64,000 nucleotides of DNA, taken from IMG/VR virus record IMGVR_UViG_3300048516_000001, positions 1 through 64,000 of that record; one strand, written 5' to 3'. Source of the DNA: a virus. The notes beneath the pieces were generated by a model. It was not told where the DNA came from. It saw nothing but the letters and a program-made list of their open reading frames with translations, and made no database searches. Of this stretch, positions 9,857 to 43,693 are shown piece by piece (within the stretch, counting starts at the first letter, position 1; each line of letters begins with the position of its first letter). A program made the position numbers and the translations under genes.

Positions 9857-10010
9857 TTTGCCAGCCTTGTTATAACAGAACCGAGCGCACCCGCTCGCGC
9901 GTGTATTAAATGCAGCCTGTGCAAGCGTCAGCTACATTGTTACTACAACAGCCAAAACGCGTATGTCGCATATGCTTGAGTCATACCAAAAAAATACTTT
10001 CCCAAAACAC

Positions 10011-10040
10011 TTGACAAAACCTTTGCGGGTAGCCTATAGT
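10011..10040 (+). promoter_or_regulatory. Family-A promoter, copy 1
   Basis: TTGACA 10011-16, 18 nt, TATAGT 10035-40, preceded by AAAATACTTTCCCAAAACAC. Confidence 0.6.
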
Positions 10041-10078
10041 AGTTTACATACTGTCTGCACATCCCTTACTAGAAAGTT

Positions 10079-10309
10079 ATGCACCACATCAAAAACGTCA
10101 AACCATTTAGCAACGAACAGCACCCAACCGAAGGTGAACACAAGAAGTTGTTGCGAGAACGGCAACGACAAGAGAAACATTCTGGATTTCAACAATTGAC
10201 TGAACTCTGTGGCTGGGAGGAGTTTGACATGGCAAAGCGACTAGCTGAAAAGTATCCCATGTGGGGCTATCAAATTGTTGACGGAACCGTTGCGGATAAA
10301 GTCAACTAG
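10079..10309 (+). CDS. Hypothetical protein
   Basis: First ORF downstream of the family-A promoter. Confidence 0.45.
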   Translation: MHHIKNVKPFSNEQHPTEGEHKKLLRERQRQEKHSGFQQLTELCGWEEFDMAKRLAEKYPMWGYQIVDGTVADKVN

Positions 10310-13201: not shown

Positions 13202-16200
13202 TCAAACTTCAAGGGGCACCTCCCATCGAATCTTGTCGGGCCAGGCCAGAACCTCGCCTACTTGCTCTATCAGCATCCGGTACTGCGCGTCGTCCGTGGC
13301 TGCCACAAAGCCTGCTCTCACCCATTTCCCCCATCGACTCACCCAGCCCATCCTGCCGATAGATTCGGAGGATTTGGGGTTTTGGGGGTTAGTCGATGGC
13401 TCTGTTTGGGTAGCTGATGCTGTCCTAGATACTCCTATTTGATTATTAATAAAAATAGGAGTATCTAGGCCAGCCCCAACACTAGACGGACTAGCGGTTT
13501 CAGCCGATTTTACAGATGCTCTTTTTGCTTCAGTTTTTTGACTCATCCTGGCTGCTGTCAAGTCAAAAAGTTCGTGCCAATTTTCAGCCAAGGAGCATAT
13601 ACGGGTCAGACCGGTTTTGCTTTCCTTCCACGTTACCTCCGGCTGGTAGAAATACTCATATCCCCGTTTCCCGTCTCCTCCCCGCGTCCGTCTGGACATC
13701 AACTTTATTCCTATCAGCCCCAACAATTTATTAAGGTACTTGATGCCGTCCTTGCCCGGCTCCCCCAGTATTTTCCGAATGCCTTTGCGCTCTCCACCTT
13801 TCAAGAGCTTTTTAATTTCTATTGATTCATTAGTCCAAGAAGCGTCAGCAGGATTTAGGAATTGTATTATGTTGAGTTCGCGAAGTGCTTGGAGTTTCAG
13901 CCAGCGGGTGCTGTGGTCAGGTAGGAAGGATTCAAGCCCGCCCGATTCCCATTTAGATTTCTGCAAGTATTCAGCATCCTCTGGATTGTGGAATAGCCAA
14001 GAATTCTCTAAATGAGATAATAGGGAACTATCCTTACCTCGAATTCTGTGTACAAATTCCCATTTCCACAGTTCTGTATTTTCAATTGCTGGCAATCTTG
14101 CTTTGAGAAACGCTTTTTCAGCTTGGCATCTTTCGGGCCACCTTGCTTTGTTTCTGCGAGATATTTCTTGAGCTTCCTCTAGTGCGATATCAGGAGAGTC
14201 GAATATTTCCTGTGATTCTTGCTCCTTGCAGGCAGTTTTTTTGTTAGCATGGTCGCCTGATTCATCTTCATTCAATATCGGCTCATTAACCTCGTATCCG
14301 CCGTCTATCAAGGCTTCTATCAAGAATTCTCTTAGATTGGATTTCTCTAAATTCTCCTGAGCTTTGTAGTGACAATAGGCGTAAAATAGCGGGTCGTCCA
14401 ATTGCCGGAGAATGTCAGCCCTGACAGCTTCTTCATACTCTGATGGGCATAGCAACGTGCTTTCAATAGAAATAGTAGCTTCTATTTGATGCCTGATTTG
14501 ATTATCGTAATACGACTTTTTATCGTCACTGCTGCTAAGCCCAATTTGAGGGCAAAGAACCGAGATTTGATTGATAGGATGCCTTACACGCCGTAACATC
14601 TGGATTAGTGAATTAATCCCCAGATTCCCGCAGAACAATCCGAATACATCCGAAAACTTTCCAGACGTGCTAATATCAAGCCCGTTCTCAAGTGTAGGCG
14701 TGTAAGCAAACCAGTTCAGGATTTCTTTTTCAAGATGGGCGTCGGGGTTGGTTTGTAAGGCAGTTTCTTCAGGGTCATTTGAGTTTTTTGAGCATACTAA
14801 AAGGCCTTTACCTTTTACCTCGGTTAGGCTCAAGGCAATGGCTTCTGATTCGGCTACAGAGCAATCTGTGGCAATTACTGGGCAATCCGAGGCTAGGATT
14901 CTATTAATAAAGTCCTGTTTTTCGGCTGCTGTCGCAGTTGCCTTTTCAGTTTGGTAAACGCTAACTTTCGGGCAATTGCCTTTATATTCGTTCAGGTATT
15001 TTGTGATTGGCTTGTTGCCCGCGAGCTTTGCAATCACACCAACTGTGTAATCTGTTAGATGCCCATCCAGCAAAATTATTCGGCTAGCATCTTGACAAGC
15101 TTGAGCGAATAGTTGTTTAATCGCTTCCCTATTATGCTTCAGAGTCGGGGACATTAGTAAGTGCCTGATAACGCTTTCGGTTTCATCCAGAATGATTGTC
15201 GCGCCTTCAAAAATATCAGGAGGAAGTTTGAGCAGCGAATCAAAGCACAGGCATAGGCGGGCGTTAGGGTCACGAAACATCAAATACCCATTGTGAGCAT
15301 CAAGGTGGTAAAACTCGCATTTTTCGGCTGTCTGGAGCAACAGCCCATTCCGACTCCCCAAAACAATGATTCTGCCTTCTGGATTGCTGGCAATGATATC
15401 TTTGAGCCATTGAGTCTTCCCCGTTGCTAGACCGCTTTTAATGGCTGTAATTGTGCCGGAGGCTGGTGCGGGTGCATGAAAGAATCGGGAGTTGATTATG
15501 TAATCGGGAATGTAATTCCTGTAACGCCGCCACTGTGCTTTTATTTCCAGTTTTCGGCAATCTTGAGCATCAGTAATTACCTTGGCAAGATTACCGCCCC
15601 CAACTACAAAATCATCAGCACCTTTGTCCGGGCCTGGCAAAAGTGCAACTTTAACAATTGCACTTTTGAATAATTTGCTTAAAGTGCTGGTCGCTTTGAA
15701 TTCTGAACTTTGTGAATAATCCCCAGTTCGGTAGTCGAAGAGAATTGTTATTGCACGACCTTCTGTGTCAAACGGTTTGAGTGATTCGTGGAGTTCTCGT
15801 GCAGTTGCTCTTTGATATTGTGTTCCATCAGCTTTTGTGACGCTCTCGCCGCGTTCGGTAACTTTGTACCCGGTGTTTATTCCTGGTAATCCGATTGCTG
15901 CATACCCGCGACTGATTACCGCTGCTGCTTTCTTTTCACCTTCAGTAATTACAATTGGGCAATGATTATTAAGTATCAAATCCCAAAAATCAATCCATTC
16001 TCCCCGTAACCCAATTACAGGAAATTCTGGTACAGGCAAATTAGCCTTGGCTAGTATCAGTTTCCCAATACTTTCATTTACTAAAGGAAAGAAGATTTCT
16101 AATGGCTCCCCTTTAGGCTGGAAGTATGTTCGGGGCTCCAAGCCAAATCCTTTGCGTTCTTTTTTTTGCTTGTAGCCAAGCGGTATCCCATCAAGTTGTT

Positions 16201-16564
16201 TAAATCGGCCATTGCAAGTCCATCCCCTCGCAGGTTGACCCGCAGACCAGTAAATACCTTTTTCTTTGATAATCCCAAATCTGGCCGCTTTGGTATCTCC
16301 GGCTAAATCTGCGGGTAGATAAAATTTGTTGCCTAGCGTATACCCAGCACTCCCAGTACAACGAGCAAGATTGCGGGCCGCCTCTACACTGCTGCCACCG
16401 CTGCTATCGCTATTAGTCGTTTTATCTGTTTCGCCGTAGAGGAGTCCGTAGGTCGCAAGGCCTTGTGAGGCAAGGAAATTCAAACGGGCAATATCCTCAT
16501 CAATGCCTGATTTCACTATCAGGTCATTATACAAAAGATAATCGAGTGATACTTTGTTACTCAC
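13202..16564 (-). CDS. Replication protein: TOPRIM/DUF3854-like primase domain plus P-loop helicase (CyRepA-like)
   Basis: TOPRIM-like VITEGEKKAAAVISRGYAAIGLPGINTG ... ILFDYRTGD. Walker A KSGLATGKTQ and Walker B IILDETES. 1120 aa. Confidence 0.75.
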   Translation of the reverse strand: MSNKVSLDYLLYNDLIVKSGIDEDIARLNFLASQGLATYGLLYGETDKTTNSDSSGGSSVEAARNLARCTGSAGYTLGNKFYLPADLAGDTKAARFGIIKEKGIYWSAGQPARGWTCNGRFKQLDGIPLGYKQKKERKGFGLEPRTYFQPKGEPLEIFFPLVNESIGKLILAKANLPVPEFPVIGLRGEWIDFWDLILNNHCPIVITEGEKKAAAVISRGYAAIGLPGINTGYKVTERGESVTKADGTQYQRATARELHESLKPFDTEGRAITILFDYRTGDYSQSSEFKATSTLSKLFKSAIVKVALLPGPDKGADDFVVGGGNLAKVITDAQDCRKLEIKAQWRRYRNYIPDYIINSRFFHAPAPASGTITAIKSGLATGKTQWLKDIIASNPEGRIIVLGSRNGLLLQTAEKCEFYHLDAHNGYLMFRDPNARLCLCFDSLLKLPPDIFEGATIILDETESVIRHLLMSPTLKHNREAIKQLFAQACQDASRIILLDGHLTDYTVGVIAKLAGNKPITKYLNEYKGNCPKVSVYQTEKATATAAEKQDFINRILASDCPVIATDCSVAESEAIALSLTEVKGKGLLVCSKNSNDPEETALQTNPDAHLEKEILNWFAYTPTLENGLDISTSGKFSDVFGLFCGNLGINSLIQMLRRVRHPINQISVLCPQIGLSSSDDKKSYYDNQIRHQIEATISIESTLLCPSEYEEAVRADILRQLDDPLFYAYCHYKAQENLEKSNLREFLIEALIDGGYEVNEPILNEDESGDHANKKTACKEQESQEIFDSPDIALEEAQEISRRNKARWPERCQAEKAFLKARLPAIENTELWKWEFVHRIRGKDSSLLSHLENSWLFHNPEDAEYLQKSKWESGGLESFLPDHSTRWLKLQALRELNIIQFLNPADASWTNESIEIKKLLKGGERKGIRKILGEPGKDGIKYLNKLLGLIGIKLMSRRTRGGDGKRGYEYFYQPEVTWKESKTGLTRICSLAENWHELFDLTAARMSQKTEAKRASVKSAETASPSSVGAGLDTPIFINNQIGVSRTASATQTEPSTNPQNPKSSESIGRMGWVSRWGKWVRAGFVAATDDAQYRMLIEQVGEVLAWPDKIRWEVPLEV

Positions 16565-17788: not shown

Positions 17789-17820
17789 ATGCAATTAATA
17801 CGCTCAAATCTTACCCACCA

Positions 17821-17847
17821 ACCCGGCAGTCACACCGGGTTTTTTTA
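17821..17847 (+). terminator. Rho-independent terminator
   Basis: ACCCGG, 8-nt loop, CCGGGT, then T7. Confidence 0.7.
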
Positions 17848-17851
17848 ATAC

Positions 17852-17978
17852 TTGACGTATTCTAATCAACCTGCTATTATTAAATCAATCGATACGTTTA
17901 CGGCAATTGCGTGCAGTGAGTAGCGGTTTTAGTGTGTTTTCATTTGAAGTGGTTTTCATCCCAAGCCTGCGAAAGCGG
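17852..17978 (+). ncRNA. Candidate small RNA unit (promoter plus about 90 nt plus terminator), function unknown
   Basis: TTGACG 17852-57, 17 nt, TATTAT 17875-80. Hairpin CCTGC-GAAA-GCGGG (17956-17969) followed by T7. No ORF lies in between. Confidence 0.3.
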
Positions 17979-18000
17979 GTTTTTTTATTAGAAAATTGAG

Positions 18001-18029
18001 TTGACAGGATTCGCATCTTCGATTACAAT
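18001..18029 (+). promoter_or_regulatory. CRISPR leader promoter
   Basis: TTGACA 18001-06, 17 nt, TACAAT 18024-29. Lies about 130 nt upstream of repeat 1. Confidence 0.6.
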
Positions 18030-18156
18030 AGACTTAACCGAACCACGAAAACTAAATAATATTCAATCTTTCCATAACACTTTTGCAATTGCGGGAGTCG
18101 GCTTGACGCAACTCAATCTTGACAACTAGATACACCAACGATTTCACACGTCTGCG

Positions 18157-18552
18157 GTCGCAATCAACCTAAACCCCTATCAGGGATTGAAACCAGTACA
18201 GTGCCGCTTTATCCTTGCCTTGTGTGAGTCGCAATCAACCTAAACCCCTATCAGGGATTGAAACGTGGCTTCTTCGCAGACGACGCTAATAGCTTGCCGT
18301 CGCAATCAACCTAAACCCCTATCAGGGATTGAAACTGGAGCAAATTAAATAATGCTAATTAACAAAACTCGTCGCAATCAACCTAAACCCCTATCAGGGA
18401 TTGAAACGTGTCTAGTGGATCCGGTTGTAGGTGAATGAGTTTGGGTCGCAATCAACCTAAACCCCTATCAGGGATTGAAACTCAGACTAGCAATCATGTG
18501 CTGCACAAACATCAACGTCGCAATCAACCTAAACCCTACTAGGGATTGAAAC
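18157..18552 (+). CRISPR. CRISPR array, 6 repeats and 5 spacers, no adjacent cas genes
   Basis: 37-nt repeat GTCGCAATCAACCTAAACCCCTATCAGGGATTGAAAC starts at 18157, 18228, 18299, 18371, 18445 and 18517. The last copy is degenerate (36 nt). Spacers are 34, 34, 35, 37 and 35 nt, all different. Confidence 0.95.
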
Positions 18553-19059
18553 GTCCCCTTTGATGACTTGACCTAACCCGCCCGCCTGTTGCAAACCAGG
18601 CTTAGAAATCAACGTTTCAGTGAAGTCAACCGACAAAGGGCAACTGTAACCAGTAACCGACCCATGTTCTGAGTTCTGCCAGCCCCAAGATTCTTTCTTC
18701 TCTGCTGGCTGCGGAACCTTTACCCGCTTCAACTCTCGGATATACCAATGAGACTTATCATCGTAAATAACACTGTAGGGCGCTTGGATTGTTGACTTAC
18801 TTTTGTCTTTTGACACGATTGCACCTTCCTCATCCACAAGGTGACTCCAATACTTCCAAGGTAATCGACAGCATGGAGCGTACCCGCCACTCTCTTTACC
18901 ATCTAAACCGTTTGTAGCTTTGTAGTAGTAATAATTTGTTTCAAAATCTTCTAAGGCTGATAATCCACAATTCCACACAGACTTAGAAATTTGTAACCAC
19001 TTTTCTATTTTTTCTTTCTGTTCGAGAGACGGAAAACATTTAAATTCTAGTGTGAGCAT
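18529..19059 (-). pseudogene. Truncated tnpB-like (IS891/IS1341 OrfB-type) N-terminal fragment
   Basis: Starts MLTLEFKCFPSLEQKEKIEKWLQISKSVWNCGL, the TnpB/Cas12 N-terminal pattern. It has only 176 aa and no RuvC motifs. Its 3' end runs into the last CRISPR repeat. Confidence 0.5.
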
Positions 19060-19326
19060 AATTGAAAATCTTTTGCGAAGGGCTTTGCAAACTCAGTATA
19101 TCATGTTATCTTAGTAATATAAAGGTAGGGAGCTTTCACCCCATTACCTGTGAGCTTTGACTCATAAAAGCGAGTGTAGCGAAAGCAGCTTGAAGCTAGT
19201 CGTAAGACAGCAATCCTGAAAAATCGAAAGATGCGGGGAAACCCAAACAGGATAATTATCTGGTAGGGCAAAAGAGTGGGAACAATCTCGCTCTTTTGTT
19301 TTGGATTGAAATTGAAATTGAATATC

Positions 19327-19355
19327 TTGACAAGATTAATAGCGTTAGCTATAAT
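19327..19355 (+). promoter_or_regulatory. Consensus sigma70-type promoter
   Basis: TTGACA 19327-32, 17 nt, TATAAT 19350-55. Lies 27 nt before ATG 19382. Confidence 0.65.
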
Positions 19356-19381: not shown

Positions 19382-19963
19382 ATGCAATTACTCCCTAATA
19401 GCGACTCACCGCAATCCGAAAGCATTGAGATTAACCAGCAGTTGCAACTATCTAGTAGCGACTCACCGCAACCTGAAGATATCGAAGAAATTAACTGGCA
19501 GTTGCAGTTAGCCAGCAAGGTACAAATTAAGCGGTGTAGCAAATGTGGAGTTTTCTCCAATCCGTATCAAAGTATCCCGCCAAAACAACTTGACGCTTGG
19601 TGCGATGACTGCTTTGTCAATACTCCAGCAATAGAACGCACTCGCAAAACCTCAGTCGGTGAACATTGGAAGTTGATACAGAAACAAGAAAGGGAAGCTC
19701 AAAAAAGAGCGGAATTGGTAGCACAGTTACAGGCACAAAAGAAATTGCTAGCCGAAAAACGTGCTAAGGATAAGAATGCACCTAAAAAGTCAAAAAAGAA
19801 GACTGTAGAAGACGCTTATTCGTTAGCCCTAGACTTTGGGGAGTTGAGCGTTGATGTAGAGGAGGACAAAGCACGGGACGCGATACTGGCACACGATGCA
19901 CGACGGGCGTACATTGCACGAGTGCAAGATAGGACAATTTTTGATGAAGACTATTGTCAGTAA
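19382..19963 (+). CDS. Hypothetical protein with tandem N-terminal repeat, Cys4 motif and basic coiled-coil
   Basis: 193-aa ORF with CSKC...CDDC. A 57/60-nt tandem duplication spans 19399-19510. The last codons and the stop lie inside the IscB element end. Confidence 0.6.
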   Translation: MQLLPNSDSPQSESIEINQQLQLSSSDSPQPEDIEEINWQLQLASKVQIKRCSKCGVFSNPYQSIPPKQLDAWCDDCFVNTPAIERTRKTSVGEHWKLIQKQEREAQKRAELVAQLQAQKKLLAEKRAKDKNAPKKSKKKTVEDAYSLALDFGELSVDVEEDKARDAILAHDARRAYIARVQDRTIFDEDYCQ

Positions 19964-20195
19964 CTCAGGTCTAAAGACACTGAGCTTGTAAGACGAAAGT
20001 TGAAGCAAGCTATCCTGACCAGCCTAAGTCTTAACTGACTACGTTTTTTGAGTCACGACACCCCGGAATGCGAAGCTAGTTCCTTGCCCTGTCGTCTGCA
20101 ATTAAACAGTTTTAAAGTCACTGAAACAGTGTTGCAGGTCTAAAAAGCTCTTAAAACATTGGCGAAGCTAACATAACCTAAGCAATTAGAGAAGG
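19954..20195 (+). ncRNA. Predicted IscB omega-RNA scaffold (guide expected just upstream, about 19935-19953)
   Basis: About 245 nt of non-coding sequence directly 5' of iscB, beginning with the hairpin CTCAGGTCTAAAGACACTGAG. IscB omega-RNAs are known to sit in this position. The fold was not verified. Confidence 0.5.
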
Positions 20196-20200
20196 CAGAA

Positions 20201-21472
20201 ATGTCAAATTACACATTAGTCATTGATTCAAATAAGCAGCCGTTAAGTCCATGTCATCCCTCGGTAGCAAGGAAATTACTAACGTCGGGTCAAGCTGCGG
20301 TATTCCGTATGTATCCATTCACCATCATTCTCAAAAAAGAGGTAATCGCCACGCCAGAACCCATTGAACTCAAAATAGACCCCGGTTCTAAAACAACTGG
20401 GATAGCCTTAGTTCAAGGGAACAAAGTTATCTTTGGTGCTGAACTAACTCATCGTGGTCAAGCTATTAAAGCAAGCCTTGAGTCTCGCAGGATTTTACGC
20501 CGGAATAGAAGAAATCGCCATACTCGCTACCGTCCCGCTAGATTCTTAAACCGGACTAAATCAAAGGGTTGGTTGGCTCCATCACTAACACATCGGGTAT
20601 TAACTACACTGACTTGGGTAAACAAGTTTATTCGGTTAGCTCCAATCAGTTCGATTTCTCAGGAGCTTGTGAGATTTGACTTACAGCAAATGGAGAATCC
20701 TGAAATATCAGGCATTGAGTACCAGCAAGGCACTCTTTCTGGCTACGAAGTACGTGAGTATCTACTTGAGAAATGGGATAGGAAATGTGCTTACTGTGAG
20801 ACAGAAAATATTTCCTTGCAGATAGAACATATTCATCCTAAATCAAAAGGTGGCTCGAATCGTATCTCCAATCTATGCCTAGCCTGTGAACATTGCAACA
20901 TCAAGAAAGGTACTCAAGATATCAAGGTTTTCTTAGCTAAGAAACCTGATGTTTTGAAAAAGGTACTTGCCCAAGCAAAGCGTCCACTAAAAGATGCAGC
21001 AGCGGTTAACTCTACTCGTTGGGCATTGTTCAACGCTCTTAAAACTACTGGATTAACTGTTACCACTGGTTCAGGAGGTAGAACCAAATTCAATCGAGCG
21101 AGCCTCAATCTTCCTAAGACTCATTGGCTAGACGCGGCTTGTGTCGGCGAAGTAGAAACATTAAAAGTCCTAACCAAAAAACCTTTGCTCATCAAGGCAA
21201 CTGGTCATGGTTCTAGGCAGATGTGTAGAACTGACAAGTTTGGATTCCCATCGCGCTATGTCCCTCGGTTCAAGTTTGTCCAAGGTTTCCAGACTGGCGA
21301 CATCGTGAAAGCGATTGTAACCAGTGGGAAGAAAATCGGAACCTATGTCGGGCGAGTTGCTGTTCGTTCTACTGGCAGTTTCAATATTTCTGCGTCAACA
21401 TTAGTTCAAGGTATTAGCCACAAGTATTGTTCAGCAATTCATAAAAAGGATGGTTATGCTTACTCAAATTAA
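20201..21472 (+). CDS. iscB: IscB RNA-guided nuclease (RuvC+HNH)
   Basis: PLMP-like N-terminus (KQPLSPCHPSVARKLL...YPFTIIL). RuvC-I IDPGSKTTGIA. Arg-rich bridge RRILRRNRRNRHTRYRPARFLNR. HNH CAYC..LQIEHIHPKSKGGSNRISNLCLACEHCNIKKG. RuvC-III KTHWLDAACVG. Confidence 0.9.
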   Translation: MSNYTLVIDSNKQPLSPCHPSVARKLLTSGQAAVFRMYPFTIILKKEVIATPEPIELKIDPGSKTTGIALVQGNKVIFGAELTHRGQAIKASLESRRILRRNRRNRHTRYRPARFLNRTKSKGWLAPSLTHRVLTTLTWVNKFIRLAPISSISQELVRFDLQQMENPEISGIEYQQGTLSGYEVREYLLEKWDRKCAYCETENISLQIEHIHPKSKGGSNRISNLCLACEHCNIKKGTQDIKVFLAKKPDVLKKVLAQAKRPLKDAAAVNSTRWALFNALKTTGLTVTTGSGGRTKFNRASLNLPKTHWLDAACVGEVETLKVLTKKPLLIKATGHGSRQMCRTDKFGFPSRYVPRFKFVQGFQTGDIVKAIVTSGKKIGTYVGRVAVRSTGSFNISASTLVQGISHKYCSAIHKKDGYAYSN

Positions 21473-21475
21473 GTC

Positions 21476-21558
21476 AGATTCAAGGCGATTGAAACCGCCG
21501 GGTCGTTTCCCTCTCAGCACTAAAGTGACTGAGTTTCCCACTTACCGAGTTGTTTATA
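21476..21558. repeat. 83-bp perfect inverted repeat, left copy (inverted LE)
   Basis: Exact reverse complement of 42106-42188, checked base by base. Confidence 0.95.
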
Positions 21559-21647
21559 TGAGGCAAAGACTTGAATAATTGTAATTTTAGCCGTCTTGAA
21601 AGACGGGGCTTTTACCCAGTTTTCTGGTAAATAGCTCTAAACGTACT

Positions 21648-22019
21648 TTGTCCATAAGTATTATGTCAGAAAACAAATTAATTCTACCTTCCGAAGTTGG
21701 TGAAGTGTCAGACGGGTTTCACACTTTTAATGAATTGTACGACCATCGCTGCACCTTGTTTCTCGCATTGTTAACGTTGGTTAATAATGCTTGGTATTCT
21801 AAAAAGCATAGTGACGGGTCTGAGTGGAGCGGCTGGTTTATTGCTGGCGTTGAGATAGAAGAAGGTAAGCAAATTACATATCATCTGCCTAATAAGTACC
21901 TGAGAATTGCTGAAGACAGGTTGGACTATAAGGAGTGTGCGCCGGAATGGGATGGACATACCTCAGCCGATGTTCTGATACGCTTGACAGAAGTGCGAGA
22001 CGCAAGCCCCTGGCTTTAG
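21648..22019 (+). CDS. Conserved phage-type hypothetical protein (EWDGH motif)
   Basis: 123-aa ORF with DGFHTFNELYDHR...WYSKKHSDGSEW...ITYHLP...EWDGHTS. Its last codons lie in the LE of the downstream IS. Confidence 0.55.
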   Translation: MSISIMSENKLILPSEVGEVSDGFHTFNELYDHRCTLFLALLTLVNNAWYSKKHSDGSEWSGWFIAGVEIEEGKQITYHLPNKYLRIAEDRLDYKECAPEWDGHTSADVLIRLTEVRDASPWL

Positions 22020-22113
22020 ACACGGGGAAAAGTCGGCAGCGGTTTCAACCGCATTGAATATTTCTTTACATTTCAATACGCAATATACAGATTCGTTCGT
22101 GTATACTGCGGGT

Positions 22114-22512
22114 ATGAAAGTAAAACTCAAATCCAATGCCAATGTAATATACTCTTGTAACTACCATATTGTTTGGTGTCCTAAGTATCGTAGGTCTGTG
22201 TTGATTAACGGTGTAGATATTCGCCTGAAATCGATTCTACAAGAAGTCTGTGCTGAATTCAATGCTGAGTTACTAGAAATGGAAGTCATGTCAGATCACG
22301 TCCACATTCTGGTAGGAGTAGACCCACAATTCGGAATTGCAAAATTAATTAGATACCTGAAAGGGCGTTCATCTCGACTGTTGAGGCAAGAATTTCCTTG
22401 GTTGAAAAGCCGACTACCAACTCTTTGGACAAATAGTTATTTCGTTGCAACGGTTGGTGGTGCACCGTTATCCGTCGTTAAGCAGTATATCGAGAATCAA
22501 AAAAATGTCTAA
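22114..22512 (+). CDS. tnpA: IS200/IS605 Y1 (HUH) transposase TnpA
   Basis: YHIVWCPKYRR, HUH motif SDHVHILV, and catalytic Tyr region SYFVATVGGAP. Start taken at MKVKLKS. Confidence 0.9.
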   Translation: MKVKLKSNANVIYSCNYHIVWCPKYRRSVLINGVDIRLKSILQEVCAEFNAELLEMEVMSDHVHILVGVDPQFGIAKLIRYLKGRSSRLLRQEFPWLKSRLPTLWTNSYFVATVGGAPLSVVKQYIENQKNV

Positions 22513-23772
22513 TTACGGATGCCAGCAAAACTTAATTAGTCCCGATTCTAGTCTGAAGGCGATTTTAGAGTTTGTATGTGGTGAATCAAATAAGTTGGCG
22601 AATTGTGCGCTGTACTATGGTCGTCAGTTGTATTTCAAGACTGGTAAGATTCCTGGAAAATACGATTTCCATAAAATGTTCAAATCAAATTTGCATTTTA
22701 AAGCTCTGTATTCTCATGTCGCGCAGCAAACTTTAACCAGCGTCGCCGAATCTTTTAGTTCGTACATTGGGCTACTAAAAGGAATTAAATCTGGGACTGT
22801 CACACAGCATCCAAGATTGCCGGGATACAGAAAAGATTCTCTGAAATTAGTAACATTCCCCAAAGCTGATGTCAAATTCAAAAACGGACTACTACGCTTT
22901 CCGTTGGGTAGCAAGGTCAAGCTTTGGTTTGGAGTTGGGGAATTCTTTTTGCCGATGCCATCAAATTTGGATTACAAGAAATTGATTGAAATTCGGATTC
23001 TCCCCAAAAATCGCTGTTTTTATGCCGAATTTGTGTATCGAACAGAGGAATTGGCTGTAGATGTTAGTCCAGGTCGTGTACTGGGATTAGACCACGGAAT
23101 TAATAACTGGTTGACAGGAGTATCCAATGTGGGAACTTCTTTCATTATTGATGGGCTACACCTAAAGTCCTTGAATCAATGGTACAACAAGCGAATCTCT
23201 GTCTTGAAAAAGAATCAACCCCAAGGTTTCTGGTCAAATCAATTAGCCAGGATTACCGAGAAAAGGAATAGACAAATTAGAGATGCAGTAAACAAAGCAG
23301 CGAGAATTGTAATTAACCACTGCCTTAAAAATCAAATAGAGACCGTAGTTTTCGGGTGGAATAAAGATCAGAAACAACGTGCAAATATGGGTAAAAAGAC
23401 TAATCAAAAATTCGTACAAATTCCCACGGGTAGACTGAAAGACAGGATATCTCAGTTATGCCAACAGCATGGAATTAAGTTTGTAGAAACCGAAGAAGCA
23501 TATACCTCAAAAGCCAGTTTTCTCGATAATGATTCACTACCTAAGTTCGGTGAAAAACCTGAAGGGTGGAAAGAATCAGGAAAAGAGTAACTCGCGGACT
23601 GTATCGTTCAGCAGATGGTACAAAAATCAATGCCGATTGCAACGGCGCAGCCAATATTATCAAAAAAGTAGCGGTAAAACTGGGATTGAATCTTAGTGGA
23701 ATCAGTAGCGGCGACTTGATAGCGCCTTTGAAAATCCGACTCTGGACTCTTCAAGAATCCCCTCGCCTTTAG
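22505..23772 (+). pseudogene. tnpB: tnpB (IS1341-type, no zinc finger) with a 1-nt frame disruption near 23582-23585
   Basis: Two overlapping ORFs (to 23590 and from 23566) together align with the intact TnpB at 42371-43693. The break falls at GGAAAAGAG, versus GGAAAACGAG in the intact copy. The RuvC-III motif NADCNGAANI lies after the break. Confidence 0.8.
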
Positions 23773-23830
23773 GCATGGGGAGTATCAAAGACTGGATTGA
23801 CAACGGTTCTTATATTTTGCCAAAGTATTG

Positions 23831-33669: not shown

Positions 33670-34812
33670 TCACCCTAAGATTCTACAGGCACATTCGGGC
33701 CTGATAACAGCGCATCCGTAGAGAACGTCGAAACAGAATTTTGTCTGTTTGTATTCGCGAGAAATCTCCAACCGCATTGTCATTCCCGACAGGTCATCGG
33801 TAAAAGATTCAATTCGATTTCCGATTGGGTCAATGTCTAATAATGGGCGAACAGCAAGCGCAAAGGAGTCTCGGTGGAAAGCCATGTTGACGACGTGACT
33901 AGCTACAACCGTGATAGCTGTACTCGCAGCGGGAGCAGTTTTTAGTGCTGGAGAAATTGGCCAACTTGTTAAGGTGGCGTCCTTTCCTACAACGTAGCCG
34001 TTCGGGTCGCCTGCAATCTTGAACAAATCACCTTCGACAGGTGCGACTGTTGCACCAGAAACAGTTAAAGTTTTCACCCCAATCGTGTTGGCTGCGCCCG
34101 TCGTAACAATCGTACCCGCAGCTTGGGTTGCATGAGTAAGGGAGTTTTGGGTCATGTACCAGTCAAAGCCAAGTTTTCGACCAATCATCCCCTCTTGAAT
34201 TGTTGCAACAGAACCAGAGTCGGATGCAGAAATAAATTGAGGAAGTGAGGTTGCGTTTGCCTCAGCATCAACATCTAAGATAATTCGGCGGTCAGCCATT
34301 GGAGCAAGTTGTCGGTTCAGAACTTTTCTTGCTTCTTGTGCTGCACCCAACCCACGATGTGAGGCATAAGTTCCAGCTACTTCCGGTTGAAAAGGTGTTT
34401 GTCCAGCAGTTCCGGCTATACCTGAAATCTGTTTGTACAATCCCATAATTGACTTGTCAATCGAGTTCGCCAAACTACGAGCGGCTTCGAGAACTTGCAA
34501 ATTTTGAAATCCATCCATTACTTGAAGAAGGTCTTTGTCTGTCATCGCAAATTCGACCTTCTTCCACTGGTCAAGCTTTACTTGCACCATGCTCGGCGAA
34601 ATTGCTGGAGCGGGGTAGGGGATGTGATTGGGAATTACATCTACGGCATCGCCCATGCTGGAAGGAATTGGAACATCGACAGTTGAACCGCGTTGCCTTG
34701 CGTCGGTGTCAAAGTTTCGATTAACGAGCGCACCCATGACTGAGTTTTCGCGCAACGCCACAATACCTTGGGCGAGAATTTTAGGGATTACTGCTTCTAA
34801 ATTATTAGCCAC
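33670..34812 (-). CDS. Major capsid protein (HK97-fold, P22-coat-like family)
   Basis: 380 aa. The N-terminus LEAVIPKILAQGIVALRENSVMGALVNRNFDTDARQRGSTVDVPIP is typical of this coat family. Lies directly downstream of the scaffold gene. Confidence 0.75.
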   Translation of the reverse strand: MANNLEAVIPKILAQGIVALRENSVMGALVNRNFDTDARQRGSTVDVPIPSSMGDAVDVIPNHIPYPAPAISPSMVQVKLDQWKKVEFAMTDKDLLQVMDGFQNLQVLEAARSLANSIDKSIMGLYKQISGIAGTAGQTPFQPEVAGTYASHRGLGAAQEARKVLNRQLAPMADRRIILDVDAEANATSLPQFISASDSGSVATIQEGMIGRKLGFDWYMTQNSLTHATQAAGTIVTTGAANTIGVKTLTVSGATVAPVEGDLFKIAGDPNGYVVGKDATLTSWPISPALKTAPAASTAITVVASHVVNMAFHRDSFALAVRPLLDIDPIGNRIESFTDDLSGMTMRLEISREYKQTKFCFDVLYGCAVIRPECACRILG

Positions 34813-35732: not shown

Positions 35733-35773
35733 AAATGATTATAATAGAGGTTTCAATCTTTATTATAATCACC

Positions 35774-37309
35774 ATGCCGCTTAAATTCAAGCATCAAGCC
35801 ATCGAACAAGACCCAGACTTGCCATCTTATTTGAGTGAAGAATACTTGAATCAGTTGCCGTTCTGGGAATTCGTAGCTGATATGTACGAAGGTAGAACGG
35901 CATGGTATATGGTTGAGCCATTCCGAACTGGGTCAAGTATGGTTCTTGACATCAATATAGGCGCAAGATATTTGCCCAGAGAAGAGGCTGAACCTGAAGA
36001 AGAGTATGCGAAGCGCATGACTCGAAGTTACTTTGACAGAAAGTTTGCAGATGCTATCGACAGTAGTGCCGGATTTTTGTCTCGCTTTTTGTTGAATGAT
36101 GATGTACACGAAAGTATTAAAACCAGTATCGACAACGTTGACCTCTGTGGTAACAGTCTGGAGGTATTCTTGAAGGCAGCAGATATAAAAAGTCTGCGAG
36201 ATGACCACTGCTTTGTCATGGTTGATTTTCCAAAGCGAAACACCGAAATAACTGACGCTTATACTGAATCAAAATACAAAACTCGCCCGTATTTTTTATT
36301 AATTGATGCTAGAGATGTTATTAACTGGAATACTGAAATCAAGAACAATAAAATGATGGTGACTCAAGCCACAGTTCGGGAAACTTTTGTTAGAAAAACT
36401 GGACGATACGGTAGTGAAAAGGCGACTCGTTATCGAGTGTTAACCCCAGGCGCTTATAAGGTATATGAAATAGAAGAAATAGAAGAAACGCCAACGCGGA
36501 CTGATTTAATTTTAGTTGAAGAAGGTACAACCACGCTAGATTTTGTACCGTTGATTCCCTATTGCTTGCTACCGAGAGACTCAGACTTTTTTACTGGCAA
36601 ACCACCGTTGTACGATATTGCCGAATTGAATTTAAAACTATATCAGAAACAGTCTGAAAAAGATGAAGCGATGCACAAAGCGAATATGGCTATTTTGCAA
36701 ATTCAAGAAACAAGTCCTCCTAGAGTGAGGTCTGACAAAGACGAAACTCGTGTTGCAACAATAGGGCCGAACACTTGTCTGTGGAACGTGAACGCTTCAT
36801 TTGTTGAACCATCGGGTTCAGCACTAGGACATACACAAGCTGACATTGAAAAGCTAGAGCTAACTATTGAGAAAAAGACACTCGCTTTTCAAAGCGGATA
36901 CGCTGCACCCCCTACGGCAACAGAGATTGCGCGTGATTCAGCCACGGCACAAGCTAGTTTAGGCTCAATGGCTAGAGCTAAAGAAAGCATTGTGCAACAA
37001 CTGTTTGATACTTGGTGTTTGTACATGAATGCACCGGGCAAAGGTGGAACTATTAAAGTTAATAAAAAGATTGTTGAAGTTGGAATGAGTGAAGCGAAAG
37101 CCGGATTGTTATTACAAATCCGTGCCGCTGGTGAGATTACTCGTCAAACATTCTTAGAAGAGTTACGCAAAGGCGATGTATTGAGTAAAGACTTTGATGT
37201 TAATGCCGAGGTTGAAAAACTAGAGAGTAAAATGAAGCAAGAGATGACAACACAATTAAGTAAGGCGACGGCATTAGCAAATGACAACCCCGCAGCAATT
37301 TATCAGTAG
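35774..37309 (+). CDS. Portal protein
   Basis: About 510 aa. Divergent from the scaffold gene and directly followed by an SPP1-gp7/MuF-like gene. Start set at MPLKFKH. Confidence 0.6.
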   Translation: MPLKFKHQAIEQDPDLPSYLSEEYLNQLPFWEFVADMYEGRTAWYMVEPFRTGSSMVLDINIGARYLPREEAEPEEEYAKRMTRSYFDRKFADAIDSSAGFLSRFLLNDDVHESIKTSIDNVDLCGNSLEVFLKAADIKSLRDDHCFVMVDFPKRNTEITDAYTESKYKTRPYFLLIDARDVINWNTEIKNNKMMVTQATVRETFVRKTGRYGSEKATRYRVLTPGAYKVYEIEEIEETPTRTDLILVEEGTTTLDFVPLIPYCLLPRDSDFFTGKPPLYDIAELNLKLYQKQSEKDEAMHKANMAILQIQETSPPRVRSDKDETRVATIGPNTCLWNVNASFVEPSGSALGHTQADIEKLELTIEKKTLAFQSGYAAPPTATEIARDSATAQASLGSMARAKESIVQQLFDTWCLYMNAPGKGGTIKVNKKIVEVGMSEAKAGLLLQIRAAGEITRQTFLEELRKGDVLSKDFDVNAEVEKLESKMKQEMTTQLSKATALANDNPAAIYQ

Positions 37310-39898: not shown

Positions 39899-40256
39899 GC
39901 TTTAGTATCTGCTTGAACGAATTGATATCTTTGGCTTCAAGAATACTTTTTGATTTTTCTTTCTTGTTCTGAATATTCGCCCAAGTTCTATGCTCTAACT
40001 CGCCCAAATCAAAAGAATCATTGCTCAAGGTAGATTCTAATACACGTTTAAACTGTTCAACCTCAGATTCATTAAGCAATATATTAGCCAGTCGCCACGC
40101 CTTGCGAATAGTCTGTGGGTCTTCATTTCCAAAGTCCGCTAAGCTTGTGAAATCATTAGTGAAACTAGCTTTTAAAAATCGAATAGCCAATATTCCTGAT
40201 TCCATTGTTTTAACTCTTGTAATATCCAATGCCTGTTTGATATCGAATAGGTTCAT
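39870..40256 (-). CDS. Hypothetical protein
   Basis: 128-aa ORF downstream of terL, overlapping its end. Confidence 0.45.
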   Translation of the reverse strand: MNLFDIKQALDITRVKTMESGILAIRFLKASFTNDFTSLADFGNEDPQTIRKAWRLANILLNESEVEQFKRVLESTLSNDSFDLGELEHRTWANIQNKKEKSKSILEAKDINSFKQILKPRQTDTTLL

Positions 40257-41619
40257 TTAGACAGAAATGTGCACCAGAAGCAGCATCGGTAATATCTTTG
40301 ACTTTCCCATCAGGAAACTCGTGCATCCAGCTTAAAAATCTGTCATTCCACGAGGCTCGTAGAAGCTTGACTTTCCCCCTAAAAGTGTCAGTAGCCAAAG
40401 GCTTTGCACGTTTCACCTTGTCTCCGAGTGGTCGGACACCTTCTGCATCAATATCTGGGTGTAATCCCATTAGTAATTGCTTGATATGCTCCTCGTCGCG
40501 TTTTCCACTACTTCCCCCTTCCAACTCCCAACGGACTTTGCACCACAATCCGTCCTGTTGCGCGGTTGCTATCATTAATTCGTCGCCGCCAACCGGCCCA
40601 ACTTGTTCAGCGATAACGTCAACCACGTAATAAATTTCATCAACTAATCGCATTTTGACTCCGGCGGTATAGCAGGCGTTAGAACGAACGGCCGCCTCTG
40701 TTGCCGCCAAATCCCAAAACCTAACTTCTTCGCCGTTGTAATCTAAAGGCGGAACATCATCAACAATTTCAAACCAAGCGCGGTTAAATAACTTCCCCGA
40801 CTCTTCCTTAACTTTCCAATTTCCATAAAGTAGTCGAGCTTGGTCTACCGGATGCAAAGCCTGAAGATTTGCCAGATACTCCGGGTTCTGCTGCATCAAA
40901 ATTTGATTGTCTTCGATTTTAGCAGGAATGAAAGTAAAGCTTTTTGCCATTAAGTCAGGATATCTATTCTCAAGTTCATCTCTTGAGCTACCCCAAACAA
41001 TCTCGCCACTCTGCCGAATAAAGTAACGAACAATTCCACTGTGTTCTGGAATCGGGAACCCTTCATCATCTAGCCACCAATCAACAAACCCCGCAATCCA
41101 AGAGTCGGCATCGGGGTTAGTTGTACAACGAACATAGGGGCGAATTCCACAAGTTGAGCGGTTGCGACTAAACAGATAGAAAACAACTGATTCGCTAAAA
41201 TGTGTTAATTCGTCTATCAGTAGAAGGGGAATTTGACTACCTTGATACTTGTACTTAGCTTGCTCGTTTCCCAAGTGTCCAAACCCTATTTTTGCGCCAC
41301 TAGGAAACAGCCAGTCAAGCGTACCTCTTCTAGGGATTGCACCTAATAGCGGATAGATGTCTTCTGAAGTATCCCAAAGTGCGCCTTCTTCGGTTATTTG
41401 AGGAAAACTTTGTCTAAAAAAGACGGCACCAAATTTTGGATTTGTTATATGACGTAAAGCCTCTAGTAGCAGTGCATAAGTTTTTCCTCCACCTGCCCCG
41501 CCGCCGTAAATAGAGAAGTCAGCGGAGGTAGTTAAAAATGCTTCTTGCTGTCCCGATTGTGGCTTAAGTATTAAATCTGATGACTTGACGGGTAATTTCT
41601 TGTATTGTTTTACGGGCAT
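40210..41619 (-). CDS. terL: Terminase large subunit
   Basis: Walker A YGGGAGGGKTY, Walker B LLLIDELTHF, C-terminal nuclease-like half. 469 aa. Confidence 0.9.
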   Translation of the reverse strand: MPVKQYKKLPVKSSDLILKPQSGQQEAFLTTSADFSIYGGGAGGGKTYALLLEALRHITNPKFGAVFFRQSFPQITEEGALWDTSEDIYPLLGAIPRRGTLDWLFPSGAKIGFGHLGNEQAKYKYQGSQIPLLLIDELTHFSESVVFYLFSRNRSTCGIRPYVRCTTNPDADSWIAGFVDWWLDDEGFPIPEHSGIVRYFIRQSGEIVWGSSRDELENRYPDLMAKSFTFIPAKIEDNQILMQQNPEYLANLQALHPVDQARLLYGNWKVKEESGKLFNRAWFEIVDDVPPLDYNGEEVRFWDLAATEAAVRSNACYTAGVKMRLVDEIYYVVDVIAEQVGPVGGDELMIATAQQDGLWCKVRWELEGGSSGKRDEEHIKQLLMGLHPDIDAEGVRPLGDKVKRAKPLATDTFRGKVKLLRASWNDRFLSWMHEFPDGKVKDITDAASGAHFCLNEPIRYQTGIGYYKS

Positions 41620-42246: not shown

Positions 42247-42384
42247 ATGAGTAAAAAAGCGTTGCAGATACAGATAGACAAAATCGAAAGAGAGAAGTTA
42301 GAAGCCCTTTCTTCTAACTGGGGGCTGAGTTTGGCGGGTGTAATCAGAAGGCTGATTAGGGAGTTTGAATATGGCAAAAACTAG
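42247..42384 (+). CDS. Small RHH/CopG-like protein inside the IS (45 aa)
   Basis: My translation: MSKKALQIQIDKIEREKLEALSSNWGLSLAGVIRRLIREFEYGKN. It has an RHH-like strand plus helices. Below the ORF-track cutoff. Confidence 0.4.
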   Translation: MSKKALQIQIDKIEREKLEALSSNWGLSLAGVIRRLIREFEYGKN

Positions 42385-43693
42385 AAAAAGTATGGGCGTT
42401 CAGCAAGTGCTATTACACCCAGACATAGAGACCAAATCAATACTCAATTACTTGTGTGAACAGTCAGGGAAGCACTATAACAACGGTGTCTACTTTGCGC
42501 GTCAAACGTTTTTTAAGACTGGAAAATTGTTAACCGGAAAGTTTGACTTGGTTTATGAGCCGACTGTTTCTAAGACTATTGTAGCTAAGTCACTACCTTC
42601 TGTGCCTGCCCAGCAAACTCTTTTGTCTGTGACTGAAGCATTCAAATCTTTTAAGGGCTTACGTGAGCTTTATTTCAATGGTCAGTTGCATTTCAAGCCT
42701 AAAGCACCTAATTATCTCAAAGGTACAAAACTGTTCAAGGTTGCTTATCCTAATTCAGGTGGACAAAAACCAATTTTGAATAATGGACAGTTGAGATTCT
42801 CTTTGGGGTTGACAGTTAGACGCTGGTTTGGAGTATCAGAATTGTTTCTGCCGATGTCGTCAAACATTGATATCGGCAATGTGAAAGAGTTTACAATCCT
42901 ACCTAAAAATGGTGCATTCTATCTTGAGTTGTCCTATGAGATTGCAAGTCAAAAGCATGAGTTAGATATTAATCAAGCGCTATCCATTGACTTAGGGACT
43001 GCTGACAACCTAGCTGCTTGTGTCGATACTCTGGGAAATTCTATGCTAATTGATGCCAGAGCAATGAAGGCGATGAATCAGCTTTGGAATAAAAAAGTAT
43101 CGACTCGCAAGGATGGGAAAGAACACGCTTACTGGGATGACTGGCTAGACCGTGTGACCCGTAAGCGCAACCATCAAATGAGAGATGGCACTAACAAAGC
43201 TGCAAAGTTGATTGTTGACCATTGTCTTAAGTTTGGTATTGGGACATTGGTAATCGGTTGGAATGAAGGCTTCAAAACTAATGCTAACATGGGCAAAGTA
43301 AACAATCAAAAGTTTGTACAGATGCCTTTGGGGAAGCTCAAAGAGCGGTTGAAGCAACTCTGCGAATTACATGGCATTAGATTTGAAGAAACCGAAGAAG
43401 CCTATACCTCTAAAGCTAGTTTCTTAGATGGAGATTCCCTACCCAAGTACGGCGAAAAGCCTGAAGGGTGGAAAGCATCAGGAAAACGAGTTAAGAGGGG
43501 CTTGTATCGTTCAGGAAACGGCTCAGTGGTGAATGCAGACTTAAATGGCGCTGCAAACATCCTTAGAAAAGTAGCCAGCAAGTTAGGCATAGACCTAAAC
43601 CAACTGGGAAGGCGGTGTTTGACGACCGTAGCGAGAATAAGACTTTGGGTTTTACCTAGAGTTGTTCTGTCCGCAGAATCTCAGTCTCTTTAG
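42371..43693 (+). CDS. tnpB: TnpB RNA-guided nuclease (intact, zinc-finger-less variant)
   Basis: RuvC-I LSIDLGTADN, RuvC-II VIGWNEGFK, RuvC-III NADLNGAANILRK. Homologous throughout to 22505-23772. The start could also be 42365 or 42392. Confidence 0.9.
   Translation: MAKTRKSMGVQQVLLHPDIETKSILNYLCEQSGKHYNNGVYFARQTFFKTGKLLTGKFDLVYEPTVSKTIVAKSLPSVPAQQTLLSVTEAFKSFKGLRELYFNGQLHFKPKAPNYLKGTKLFKVAYPNSGGQKPILNNGQLRFSLGLTVRRWFGVSELFLPMSSNIDIGNVKEFTILPKNGAFYLELSYEIASQKHELDINQALSIDLGTADNLAACVDTLGNSMLIDARAMKAMNQLWNKKVSTRKDGKEHAYWDDWLDRVTRKRNHQMRDGTNKAAKLIVDHCLKFGIGTLVIGWNEGFKTNANMGKVNNQKFVQMPLGKLKERLKQLCELHGIRFEETEEAYTSKASFLDGDSLPKYGEKPEGWKASGKRVKRGLYRSGNGSVVNADLNGAANILRKVASKLGIDLNQLGRRCLTTVARIRLWVLPRVVLSAESQSL

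Follow-up and report, generated by a model that had tools for sequence, protein, structure and literature searches.

The stretch analyzed here, positions 1 to 64,000 of the IMG/VR virus record IMGVR_UViG_3300048516_000001 (the window; all positions are numbered over these 64 kb), carries a short CRISPR array that an initial annotation, made from the letters alone, had described as lacking any CRISPR-associated (Cas) protein. We compared the locus with related contigs and loci (labeled L001–L032) and find that its last repeat is fused to the stump of a type V effector gene, c2c8, which is intact in sister contigs. The features at the locus are:

18001..18029, + strand: sigma-70-type array promoter, TTGACA-17-TACAAT, matching the consensus at 11 of 12 positions
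18030..18156, + strand: leader, its last ~50 nt holding the motif CGCAAC..(A)ATCTTGACAAC..ATAC..TTTCA
18157..18552, + strand: CRISPR array of five identical 37-nt repeats (GTCGCAATCAACCTAAACCCCTATCAGGGATTGAAAC) and a degenerate 36-nt terminal repeat, with five spacers
18482..18516, + strand: spacer 5, the oldest, resembling spacer 11 of L002 and matching hsdM, the M subunit gene of a type I restriction-modification system, of filamentous cyanobacteria
18552..18553, no strand: deletion junction, where the 3' end of the terminal repeat is fused to c2c8 codon 169
18553..19059, - strand: truncated C2c8/Cas12u2 (subtype V-U2) gene, codons 1–169, its open reading frame (ORF) extending as far as a stop within the terminal repeat, at 18529

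The five identical 37-mers start at 18157, 18228, 18299, 18371 and 18445 and are followed by a sixth, 36-nt copy with the CCCTACTAGGG variant (18517–18552). The spacers measure 34, 34, 35, 37 and 35 nt in this order and are all unique. Five repeat matches were observed where dinucleotide shuffles gave none, and the layout of six repeats and five spacers proposed in the initial annotation is borne out, as is its near-consensus promoter. The locus thus has what is generally asked of a CRISPR array (at least three near-identical repeats of 23–55 nt and unique spacers of similar length) and of its polarity, with a promoter at one end, a degenerate repeat at the other and polarized spacer turnover. 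The best Rfam match of repeats 1–5, found at a permissive threshold, is CRISPR-DR5 (RF01318; + strand, 34.9 bits, E = 0.003), under the gathering score of 40. By alignment, the array promoter is conserved in all sister contigs, with a -10 element of TAGAAT in L003/L004.

The ORF at 18529–19059 matches the N terminus of C2c8 in both PADLOC (Cas12u2, 3e-19) and NCBIfam (V_cas_c2c8, 5e-19; profile positions 2–121 of 457). Residues 1–169 are 98% identical to an intact 611-amino acid (aa) protein of L001, and in tblastn the homology stops exactly at 18553. The stump reaches 68.7 bits against NCBIfam NF038192, below the curated cut-off of 350, as a fragment, and the intact L001 orthologue (70–1905) reaches 394.8 bits (PADLOC Cas12u2 1e-116). 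The same cut-off is passed by homologs sharing 33–44% identity and by the V-U2 protein of cyanophage vB_AphaS-CL131 (CL131). In L001/L032 and in L003/L004/L005 the stump's place is taken by an intact 611-aa effector, and the sister contigs are syntenic with the window and 91–98% identical to it around the array. The exact repeat is present in two IMG/VR contigs and two metagenome contigs, the metagenome hits being confined to L002 and an L001-like relative; three further contigs came from an exact-protein look-up. In the family alignment the RuvC residues Asp-310 and Glu-452 are invariant, Asp-554 is at least 90% conserved and the zinc-finger cysteines 525, 528, 545 and 547 are conserved. The window fragment ends before RuvC-I (Asp-310), and neither the catalytic triad nor the zinc finger is retained.

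The arrangement is that of subtype V-U2: the stump lies directly against the terminal repeat, arrays adjoin the intact genes of L001, L003–L005, L032 and L009–L014, and no cas1, cas2, cas4 or other cas gene lies in the locus within the window. We scanned all 106 window ORFs of at least 50 aa; with the methyltransferase, TnpB, IscB and C2c8 ORFs set aside, no Cas family was found in them. Likewise, no cas gene besides the effector occurs within ±10 kb of the locus in L003/L004. The statement that the 64 kb encode no Cas protein therefore has to be withdrawn, as the ORF at 18529–19059 is an N-terminal C2c8 fragment; what survives of it is that no working cas gene is found in the window. An AlphaFold model of C2c8 (predicted local distance difference test score 78.5) has Cas12p as its nearest solved structure (Foldseek E = 1.5e-17, TM-score 0.51–0.60; family profile E = 4.6e-38), followed among structural and profile matches by TnpB, LaTranC and Cas12f.

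Distant C2c8 homologs (33–44% identity) always adjoin arrays of the same DR5-type repeat family. In every such locus examined (L009/L010, L011, L012, L013 and L014), the array begins 0–145 nt past the stop codon on the same strand, and its repeats read through a stem-loop to ATTGAAAG, as in the L009 repeat GTTGCAATGTACAATAATCCCTATCAGGGATTGAAAG, present 31 times. These co-directional arrays tie the repeat family to the effector and fix the CRISPR RNA (crRNA) sense as the + strand of the window, in support of the transcription direction proposed earlier. Since the C2c8 homologs share the repeat family, a repeat ending in ATTGAAAC is not diagnostic of Cas6 or class 1; the repeat 3' ends of V-K and Cas12p are similar. 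The initial annotation had taken this ending, along with a short palindrome, as the mark of a Cas6-processed class 1 system and the array as Cas-less. Rather than being intrinsically Cas-less, the array belongs to a phage-borne class 2, type V-U2 locus, given the stump that abuts its terminal repeat and the intact gene in sister contigs.

Spacer content differs between the haplotypes in a polarized manner. Common spacers sit at the trailer end (spacer 5 of the window is similar to L002 spacer 11, spacers 7 of L001 and 17 of L002 are the same, and L001 spacer 11 is similar to L002 spacer 18), and the L004 array equals that of L003 with one extra leader-proximal spacer. The window array is the shortest of the lineage, with five spacers against 11–18, and four of the five are unique to this genome. 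We also noticed spacer-less, directly abutting repeat units, which recur at array trailer ends in unrelated C2c8 lineages (L003 11880–12400 and the same stretch of L004; trailers of L001 1914–1984, L011 6006–6121 and L012 6276–6346); in L001 and L003/L004 the second unit lacks its first 3 nt. Across the L003 array the repeat 5' half is variable and the 3' half (CCCTACTAGGGATTGAAAC) constant.

The repeat is nevertheless of cyanobacterial style, as had been recognized from the outset. Repeats of the form AATCCCTATCAGGGATTGAAAC constitute the DR5 family, which many arrays on the chromosomes of filamentous cyanobacteria share with Nostoc cyanophage N-1 (PMC4916379) and which host I-D/III systems use; a Microcystis I-D repeat (PMC4428289) is identical to the window repeat at 30 of 37 positions. 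A search of 185,579 species-representative genomes did not return the exact repeat, although the related family and leader motif do occur in host arrays. A profile of leader and first repeat matches the start of a large array on the Nostoc PCC 7524 plasmid pNOS7524.01 (L028; ~50 nt of leader, nhmmer E = 8.5e-11), which encodes cas1, cas2, csx18 and a type III-B module (cmr genes). By alignment, the same leader motif stands beside the distant C2c8 arrays of L013 and L014. The last ~50 nt of the leader are presumed to be the recognition region for host adaptation machinery. V-K, I-D, III and V-U2 arrays have been reported to share 37-bp repeats whose ends are conserved, a motif near position -44 of the leader, a GTN protospacer-adjacent motif (PAM) and spacers, and cross-class use of I-D adaptation, V-U2 included, has been proposed (bioRxiv 10.1101/2021.02.06.429022). 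As host I-D/III arrays share the repeat family and leader motif and a relative has gained one leader-proximal spacer, adaptation is probably host-dependent: to acquire spacers, the effector-only phage locus most likely relies on host Cas1-Cas2(-Cas4), and crRNA processing perhaps also depends on host Cas proteins. The earlier idea that the element borrows host Cas proteins thus stays plausible at least for acquisition, but the array belongs to a V-U2 effector of its own.

Related short arrays may exist on other mobile elements. The Nostoc sp. N6 plasmid pNPM10 (L029; NZ_CP026683.1) holds a mini-array at 9927–10170 with three to four repeats ~91% identical to that of the window. No cas gene is annotated on this 21.9-kb linear plasmid, which encodes a protelomerase and is therefore probably a phage-plasmid; the mini-array may be another cas-less array on a mobile element.

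Comparison with L001 defines what the effector gene has lost. The window tracks the L001 trailer repeat up to GGGATTGAAAC and then passes directly into the gene at codon 169, so that ~1.37 kb are missing: 1.33 kb from the 3' part of the gene, plus the trailer repeat. Also absent from the window are the seven L002 spacers located past the counterpart of spacer 5. A GGTT stands directly before the retained stretch of the gene in intact L001/L032; within c2c8, 2.5% of positions follow GTT and 6.6% follow GTN, and we roughly estimate the joint chance of a GTT-flanked junction at an exact repeat end at less than ~1e-3. With one endpoint at the 3' end of a repeat and the other following GGTT, the junction has the geometry of a spacer and its protospacer. 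The deletion possibly arose by recombination between a self-derived c2c8 spacer and its GTT-flanked protospacer, which would remove PAM, nuclease domain and trailer spacers at once. In its simple version this model sits awkwardly with a putative self-spacer placed downstream of an old one; alternatively, the junction may be a coincidence or the product of an off-pathway integrase event. In L002/L031, c2c8 is replaced by a 147-bp fragment identical to part of the window IS605 tnpB (23002–23148), with 18 spacers and perfect repeats kept; the effector was lost there independently. Two of four haplotypes are hence effector-less by different events, with promoter, leader and perfect repeats maintained.

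A side effect of the fusion concerns the sequence next to the terminal repeat. Positions 18553–18587 (+ strand) would be transcribed as a pseudo-spacer, identical to the GGTT-flanked site in intact c2c8 of L001/L032, and the window's own copy of the site lacks the GGTT PAM.

We screened 45 distinct spacers of the phage lineage for targets. Outside the arrays, the window and its relatives contain no match to any of them, the phage collection yielded no match either, and spacers 1–4 have no exact 24-mer in IMG/VR. Spacer 5 matches cyanobacterial hsdM: 34 of 35 positions in Kamptonema sp. UHCC 0994 (5' flank GGTT) and Microcoleus sp. LAD1_D3 (GATT), 33 of 34 on a Dolichospermum plasmid (E = 8e-5; 33 of 35 over the full spacer; GGTT), 32 of 34 on a Synechococcus PCC 7502 plasmid, and 32 of 35 in three more cyanobacteria (GGTT). 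Five of the six close hsdM sites have GGTT as their 5' flank, that of Microcoleus being GATT, and a GTT flank is consistent with the GTN PAM of Cas12p, Cas12k and I-D. A spacer-5 crRNA would be antisense to hsdM mRNA, which fits DNA targeting (C2c8, I-D) and RNA-dependent type III alike and does not discriminate between them. The sole identifiable target suggests an anti-defense or anti-plasmid use.

Cas12p requires a trans-activating crRNA (tracrRNA) whose GUUU pairs with AAAC at the repeat 3' end (bioRxiv 10.1101/2025.01.20.633832). Upstream of the effector gene, and so surviving the deletion, we located a candidate for such a partner:

19110..19250, - strand: candidate conserved non-coding element, possibly a tracrRNA or regulatory RNA

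It consists, in order, of a degenerate copy of the lineage's own repeat stem-loop, a CGCTACAC-type motif, a hairpin with a GAAA loop and a U tract, the last two with some compensatory changes. Counterparts lie at L007 3812–3930, L011 3862–3980, L012 3814–3931, L013 3852–3950, L014 3840–3958 and L009 2660–2795. The alignment is noisy and duplex energies with the repeats are unremarkable; as a tracrRNA the element is a candidate only. Two terminator-like hairpins (17820–17841 and 17963–17982) precede the array, as the initial annotation had noted. A consensus scan finds a second promoter-like site between them (17852–17880, TTGACG-17-TATTAT, 10 of 12 with an extended TG), so the second hairpin, rather than just insulating the array, probably ends a separate unit of its own:

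17852..17987, + strand: small promoter and intrinsic terminator unit, ~100 nt, between the Bro-N gene and the array promoter, invariant among close relatives only

As a tracrRNA this unit was rejected, its fold being no better than that of shuffles (z = -0.38) and homologs at distant loci being absent.

Taken together, we consider it likely that the feature is the CRISPR array of a phage-borne, effector-only V-U2 (C2c8/Cas12u2) locus whose effector has been lost in this genome. The description that fits it best is recently orphaned, with a repeat, a leader and probably a PAM common to host I-D/III systems. In intact relatives, the array would be transcribed from its own promoter into crRNAs consisting of the repeat 3' part (GGGAUUGAAAC) followed by the spacer. 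Each crRNA, probably with a tracrRNA, would guide C2c8 to cut DNA beside a 5' GTN PAM as in Cas12p, and new spacers would enter at the leader end via host I-D/III Cas1-Cas2(-Cas4), which serve the same repeat family, leader motif and PAM. In the window, one 1.37-kb deletion would have taken the trailer spacers and the 3' two-thirds of c2c8. The array would then act only with a nuclease supplied in trans, be it a host or co-infecting C2c8 or host I-D/III complexes, and would otherwise be a recent relic.

Several observations weigh against this interpretation or narrow it. In the window lineage, gene and array are convergent, inverted relative to all distant loci, and the array promoter lies on the far side. 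Array transcription and crRNA production are inferred from consensus signals only, and the PAM and nuclease activity assigned to C2c8 derive from its conserved residues and from Cas12p, which is only ~16% identical. Because the hsdM sites are homologous, the PAM assignment effectively has n = 1–2. An identifiable target exists for only 1 of the 45 lineage spacers, so that the anti-defense reading depends on a single spacer. With regard to a guide-RNA partner, anti-repeat complementarity in 17789–18156 is at chance level (z about 0), and hold-out nhmmer profiles recover the candidate element at 19110–19250 as the only hit, in the right place and strand, with weak E values (0.08–0.9) and with nothing found in one of three tests. 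Finally, the Cas scan covers the 64-kb window, and a further cas gene elsewhere on the replicon is possible.

That the orphaned array is a decaying relic, functionless since the deletion and as yet undegraded, is a possibility against which we lean only mildly. The effector is cut to 169 of 611 residues, the array is at the short end of the lineage's range, its terminal repeat is degenerate, and the region is a hotspot of recent insertion sequence (IS)/IscB insertions absent from L002. Decay has left no trace, however, in the five identical repeats or in the fully conserved promoter and leader; spacers found in this genome alone point to turnover until recently, and the second, independently effector-less lineage has kept its 18 spacers.

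Full reliance on host class 1 systems appears unlikely, if not strongly so. Here the array would be functional and Cas-less, its transcripts would be processed by host Cas6 and used by I-D/III complexes against phages, plasmids and host genes, and effector loss would be tolerated or irrelevant. The DR5-family repeat with its resemblance to that of Microcystis I-D, the leader motif common to a host array near cas1-cas2 and a III-B module, the GTT flank (which is the I-D PAM) and the antisense orientation to hsdM mRNA that type III requires all agree with it. So do the two effector-less haplotypes with intact promoter, leader and repeats, one of them with a long array, and the precedent of phage N-1, which has a transcribed cas-less DR5 array. 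Yet, as the stump shows, array and C2c8 have evolved together and the orphaning is only recent, and a recent loss suffices to explain the perfect repeats. Class 1 cas genes are missing from the window, none of the species-representative genomes searched has an identical repeat, and processing of these crRNAs by host Cas6 and their loading into host effectors is a supposition.

More doubtful still is a fuller scenario in which a lineage of cyanophages or phage-plasmids carries a minimal C2c8 system supplied with spacers by host I-D-type machinery, as a weapon against hsdM or its plasmids. Effector-less "cheaters" would arise through autoimmunity-escape deletions (self-spacer x protospacer), their arrays functioning with nucleases in trans. 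The terminal pseudo-spacer would then guide cleavage of the GGTT-flanked c2c8 of co-infecting relatives, the PAM-less copy of the cheater itself being protected.

An ordinary host chromosomal array outside any mobile element is very improbable. Chromosomes of cyanobacteria commonly carry this repeat family, IS elements occur in the window along with a group II intron fragment like copies on cyanobacterial plasmids, and glycosyl- and sulfotransferase genes lie at or beyond its right end. The window, however, encodes a terminase, a portal, a major head protein, a Mu-F-like protein, an endolysin, anti-repressors and a replication protein, no tRNAs or housekeeping families were found in its 64 kb, and the locus recurs in IMG/VR viral contigs and in 54–90-kb contigs with the same phage gene order. 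Use of the array by the window's IscB (20201–21472) or TnpBs (22445–23590, 42365–43693), which lie close to it and are evolutionary relatives of Cas9/Cas12, is hardly credible and was rejected: IscB has its own complete HEARO omega RNA (149.5 bits), the TnpBs match IS200/IS605-type models and not C2c8, the IscB/IS605 block is absent from relatives with the same array, and none of these genes has repeat-related sequence.

We next place the V-U2 locus among known systems. Cyanophage CL131 carries a V-U2 locus (PMC6293099), which like our sister loci consists of an effector alone, a TnpB-derived RuvC protein of ~450–650 aa beside an array without cas1, cas2 or cas4, in cyanobacteria and a cyanophage. 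The effector of the sister contigs is 29.5% identical to the CL131 protein (both pass NF038192), whereas the window keeps only the first 169 codons. The lineage also differs in its DR5-type repeat (that of CL131 is GTTAGGATGCCCGCAGGATGTCATATAGTTGGCAAG), in the convergence of array and gene, and in its virion genes, with a P22-type coat and podophage-like fibers compared with the 113-kb siphovirus CL131. V-U2 is the only original V-U subtype still without a Cas12 letter name and a determined PAM (2024 review). The best structural and profile match of C2c8, Cas12p ("Cas12 hacker", V-P; bioRxiv 10.1101/2025.01.20.633832; PDB IDs 9jfs/9jg3), has features compatible with ours: it is phage-encoded, 500–700 aa long, has an active RuvC and uses a 37-nt repeat ending in AAAC and a GTN PAM. 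Identity in the structural alignment is ~16–17%, however, the match being mainly C-terminal and the N-terminal half poorly related. Cas12p depends on TrxA and a tracrRNA; C2c8 is compared with it here by sequence and structure.

Phage N-1 offers the closest parallel for the array itself, with four spacers (window: five), 37-nt DR5 repeats, a ~120-nt leader, a filamentous cyanobacterium as host and no functional cas gene (PMC4916379). The comparison had been drawn before; it holds for the cas-less DR5 array of N-1, but the window retains an effector stump and has intact sister loci, while two studies report no recognizable cas remnant in N-1 (PMC6293099, PMC4916379). The two genomes have no detectable nucleotide similarity. 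A blastn search of the array against phages returned nothing, at an E-value cut-off that makes it blind to short repeat similarity, and the relation to N-1 is taken from PMC4916379. V-K (Cas12k) CRISPR-associated transposons and cyanobacterial I-D systems share 37-nt repeats with similar 5' and 3' ends, the leader motif at about -44 and the GTN PAM, and type V loci without adaptation genes have been proposed to use I-D Cas1-Cas2-Cas4 in trans (bioRxiv 10.1101/2021.02.06.429022). Unlike Cas12k, which is catalytically dead and Tn7-like-linked, C2c8 keeps the RuvC triad and has no transposition genes associated. Vibrio phage ICP1, as described in PMC6293099 after Seed et al. 2013, likewise carries a CRISPR system (type I-F) with spacers against a host anti-phage element, the PLE island. 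According to that account it is a complete class 1 system of demonstrated function, in contrast to the window, which has one hsdM spacer match and lacks its effector.

With the CL131 V-U2 locus and the cas-less N-1 array both published, this kind of element is already known. What is new is the effector loss that links a V-U2 locus to a "cas-less" array, the deletion junction with its PAM flank, the gain of a spacer at the leader end where the locus has only an effector, and the hsdM spacer. Phage arrays that seem Cas-less, like that of N-1, can arise, as this lineage illustrates, when a once-complete locus loses its compact effector, and the PAM-flanked deletion junction suggests autoimmunity as the driver. 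A natural GTT-flanked hsdM target, the crRNA orientation, a leader shared with class 1, the leader-end spacer gain and a candidate tracrRNA region make PAM, guide design and cross-class adaptation testable. If functional, the hsdM spacer would add to ICP1 an independent example, the second, of a phage CRISPR system directed against host defense.

The replicon around the array is phage-like, in agreement with the phage neighbors listed in the initial annotation. Its principal genes, and the mobile elements inserted among them, are:

13202–16564, - strand: CyRepA1-family replication protein, 1120 aa (3.6e-103), with DUF3854
19956–20177, + strand: complete HEARO omega RNA, followed by IscB
20201–21472, + strand: IscB, 423 aa (RRXRR and HNH; NCBIfam guided_IscB 3.6e-141)
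22054–22512, + strand: IS200/IS605 tnpA
22445–23590 and 23566–23772, + strand: IS200/IS605 tnpB, apparently split by a frameshift
33670–34812, - strand: P22-type coat protein
35735–37309: portal (PHROGs 9.5e-81)
40210–41619, - strand: large terminase (PHROGs 1.3e-140)
42365–43693, + strand: second tnpB, adjoining the terminase gene

PHROGs matches include a major head protein (2.8e-74), a minor head protein and an endolysin. Further genes encode the Mu-F-like minor head protein, anti-repressors of the Bro-N/KilA-N type, a C5 methyltransferase and a SigF-like sigma factor, so that the window holds the virion and packaging hallmark genes of a tailed phage. A CyRepA1-type replication protein next to virion genes indicates that the element may replicate as a phage-plasmid, and the region is possibly just that. 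Megablast of 5–25-kb window pieces gave no match to the phage collection. Matches to the plasmid collection are limited to IS, intron and HEARO pieces that resemble copies on Planktothrix, Oscillatoria and Trichormus plasmids and thereby point to a cyanobacterial background; among them, a group II intron reverse transcriptase/maturase fragment (1–645) is ~80% identical to ltrA copies on Oscillatoria and Planktothrix plasmids.

The block 19956–23828 (IscB, a WDGH-domain ORF, and IS200/IS605 tnpA and tnpB) is absent from L002/L031 and hence represents recent insertions, at a distance of ~1.4 kb from the array. The initial annotation had overlooked IscB, its omega RNA and both TnpBs. Divergent from c2c8 lies a conserved 193-aa ORF (19382–19963, + strand), in which a 57-nt tandem repeat (19395–19506) encodes a repeated N-terminal peptide and which is preceded by a perfect consensus promoter (TTGACA-17-TATAAT, 19327–19355). 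After removal of nucleases and methylases, the residual PADLOC matches among the window ORFs are MzaA (4e-9), PD-T4-10_B (7e-9), PDC-S22 and PsyrT, which may be phage-carried defense or counter-defense genes.

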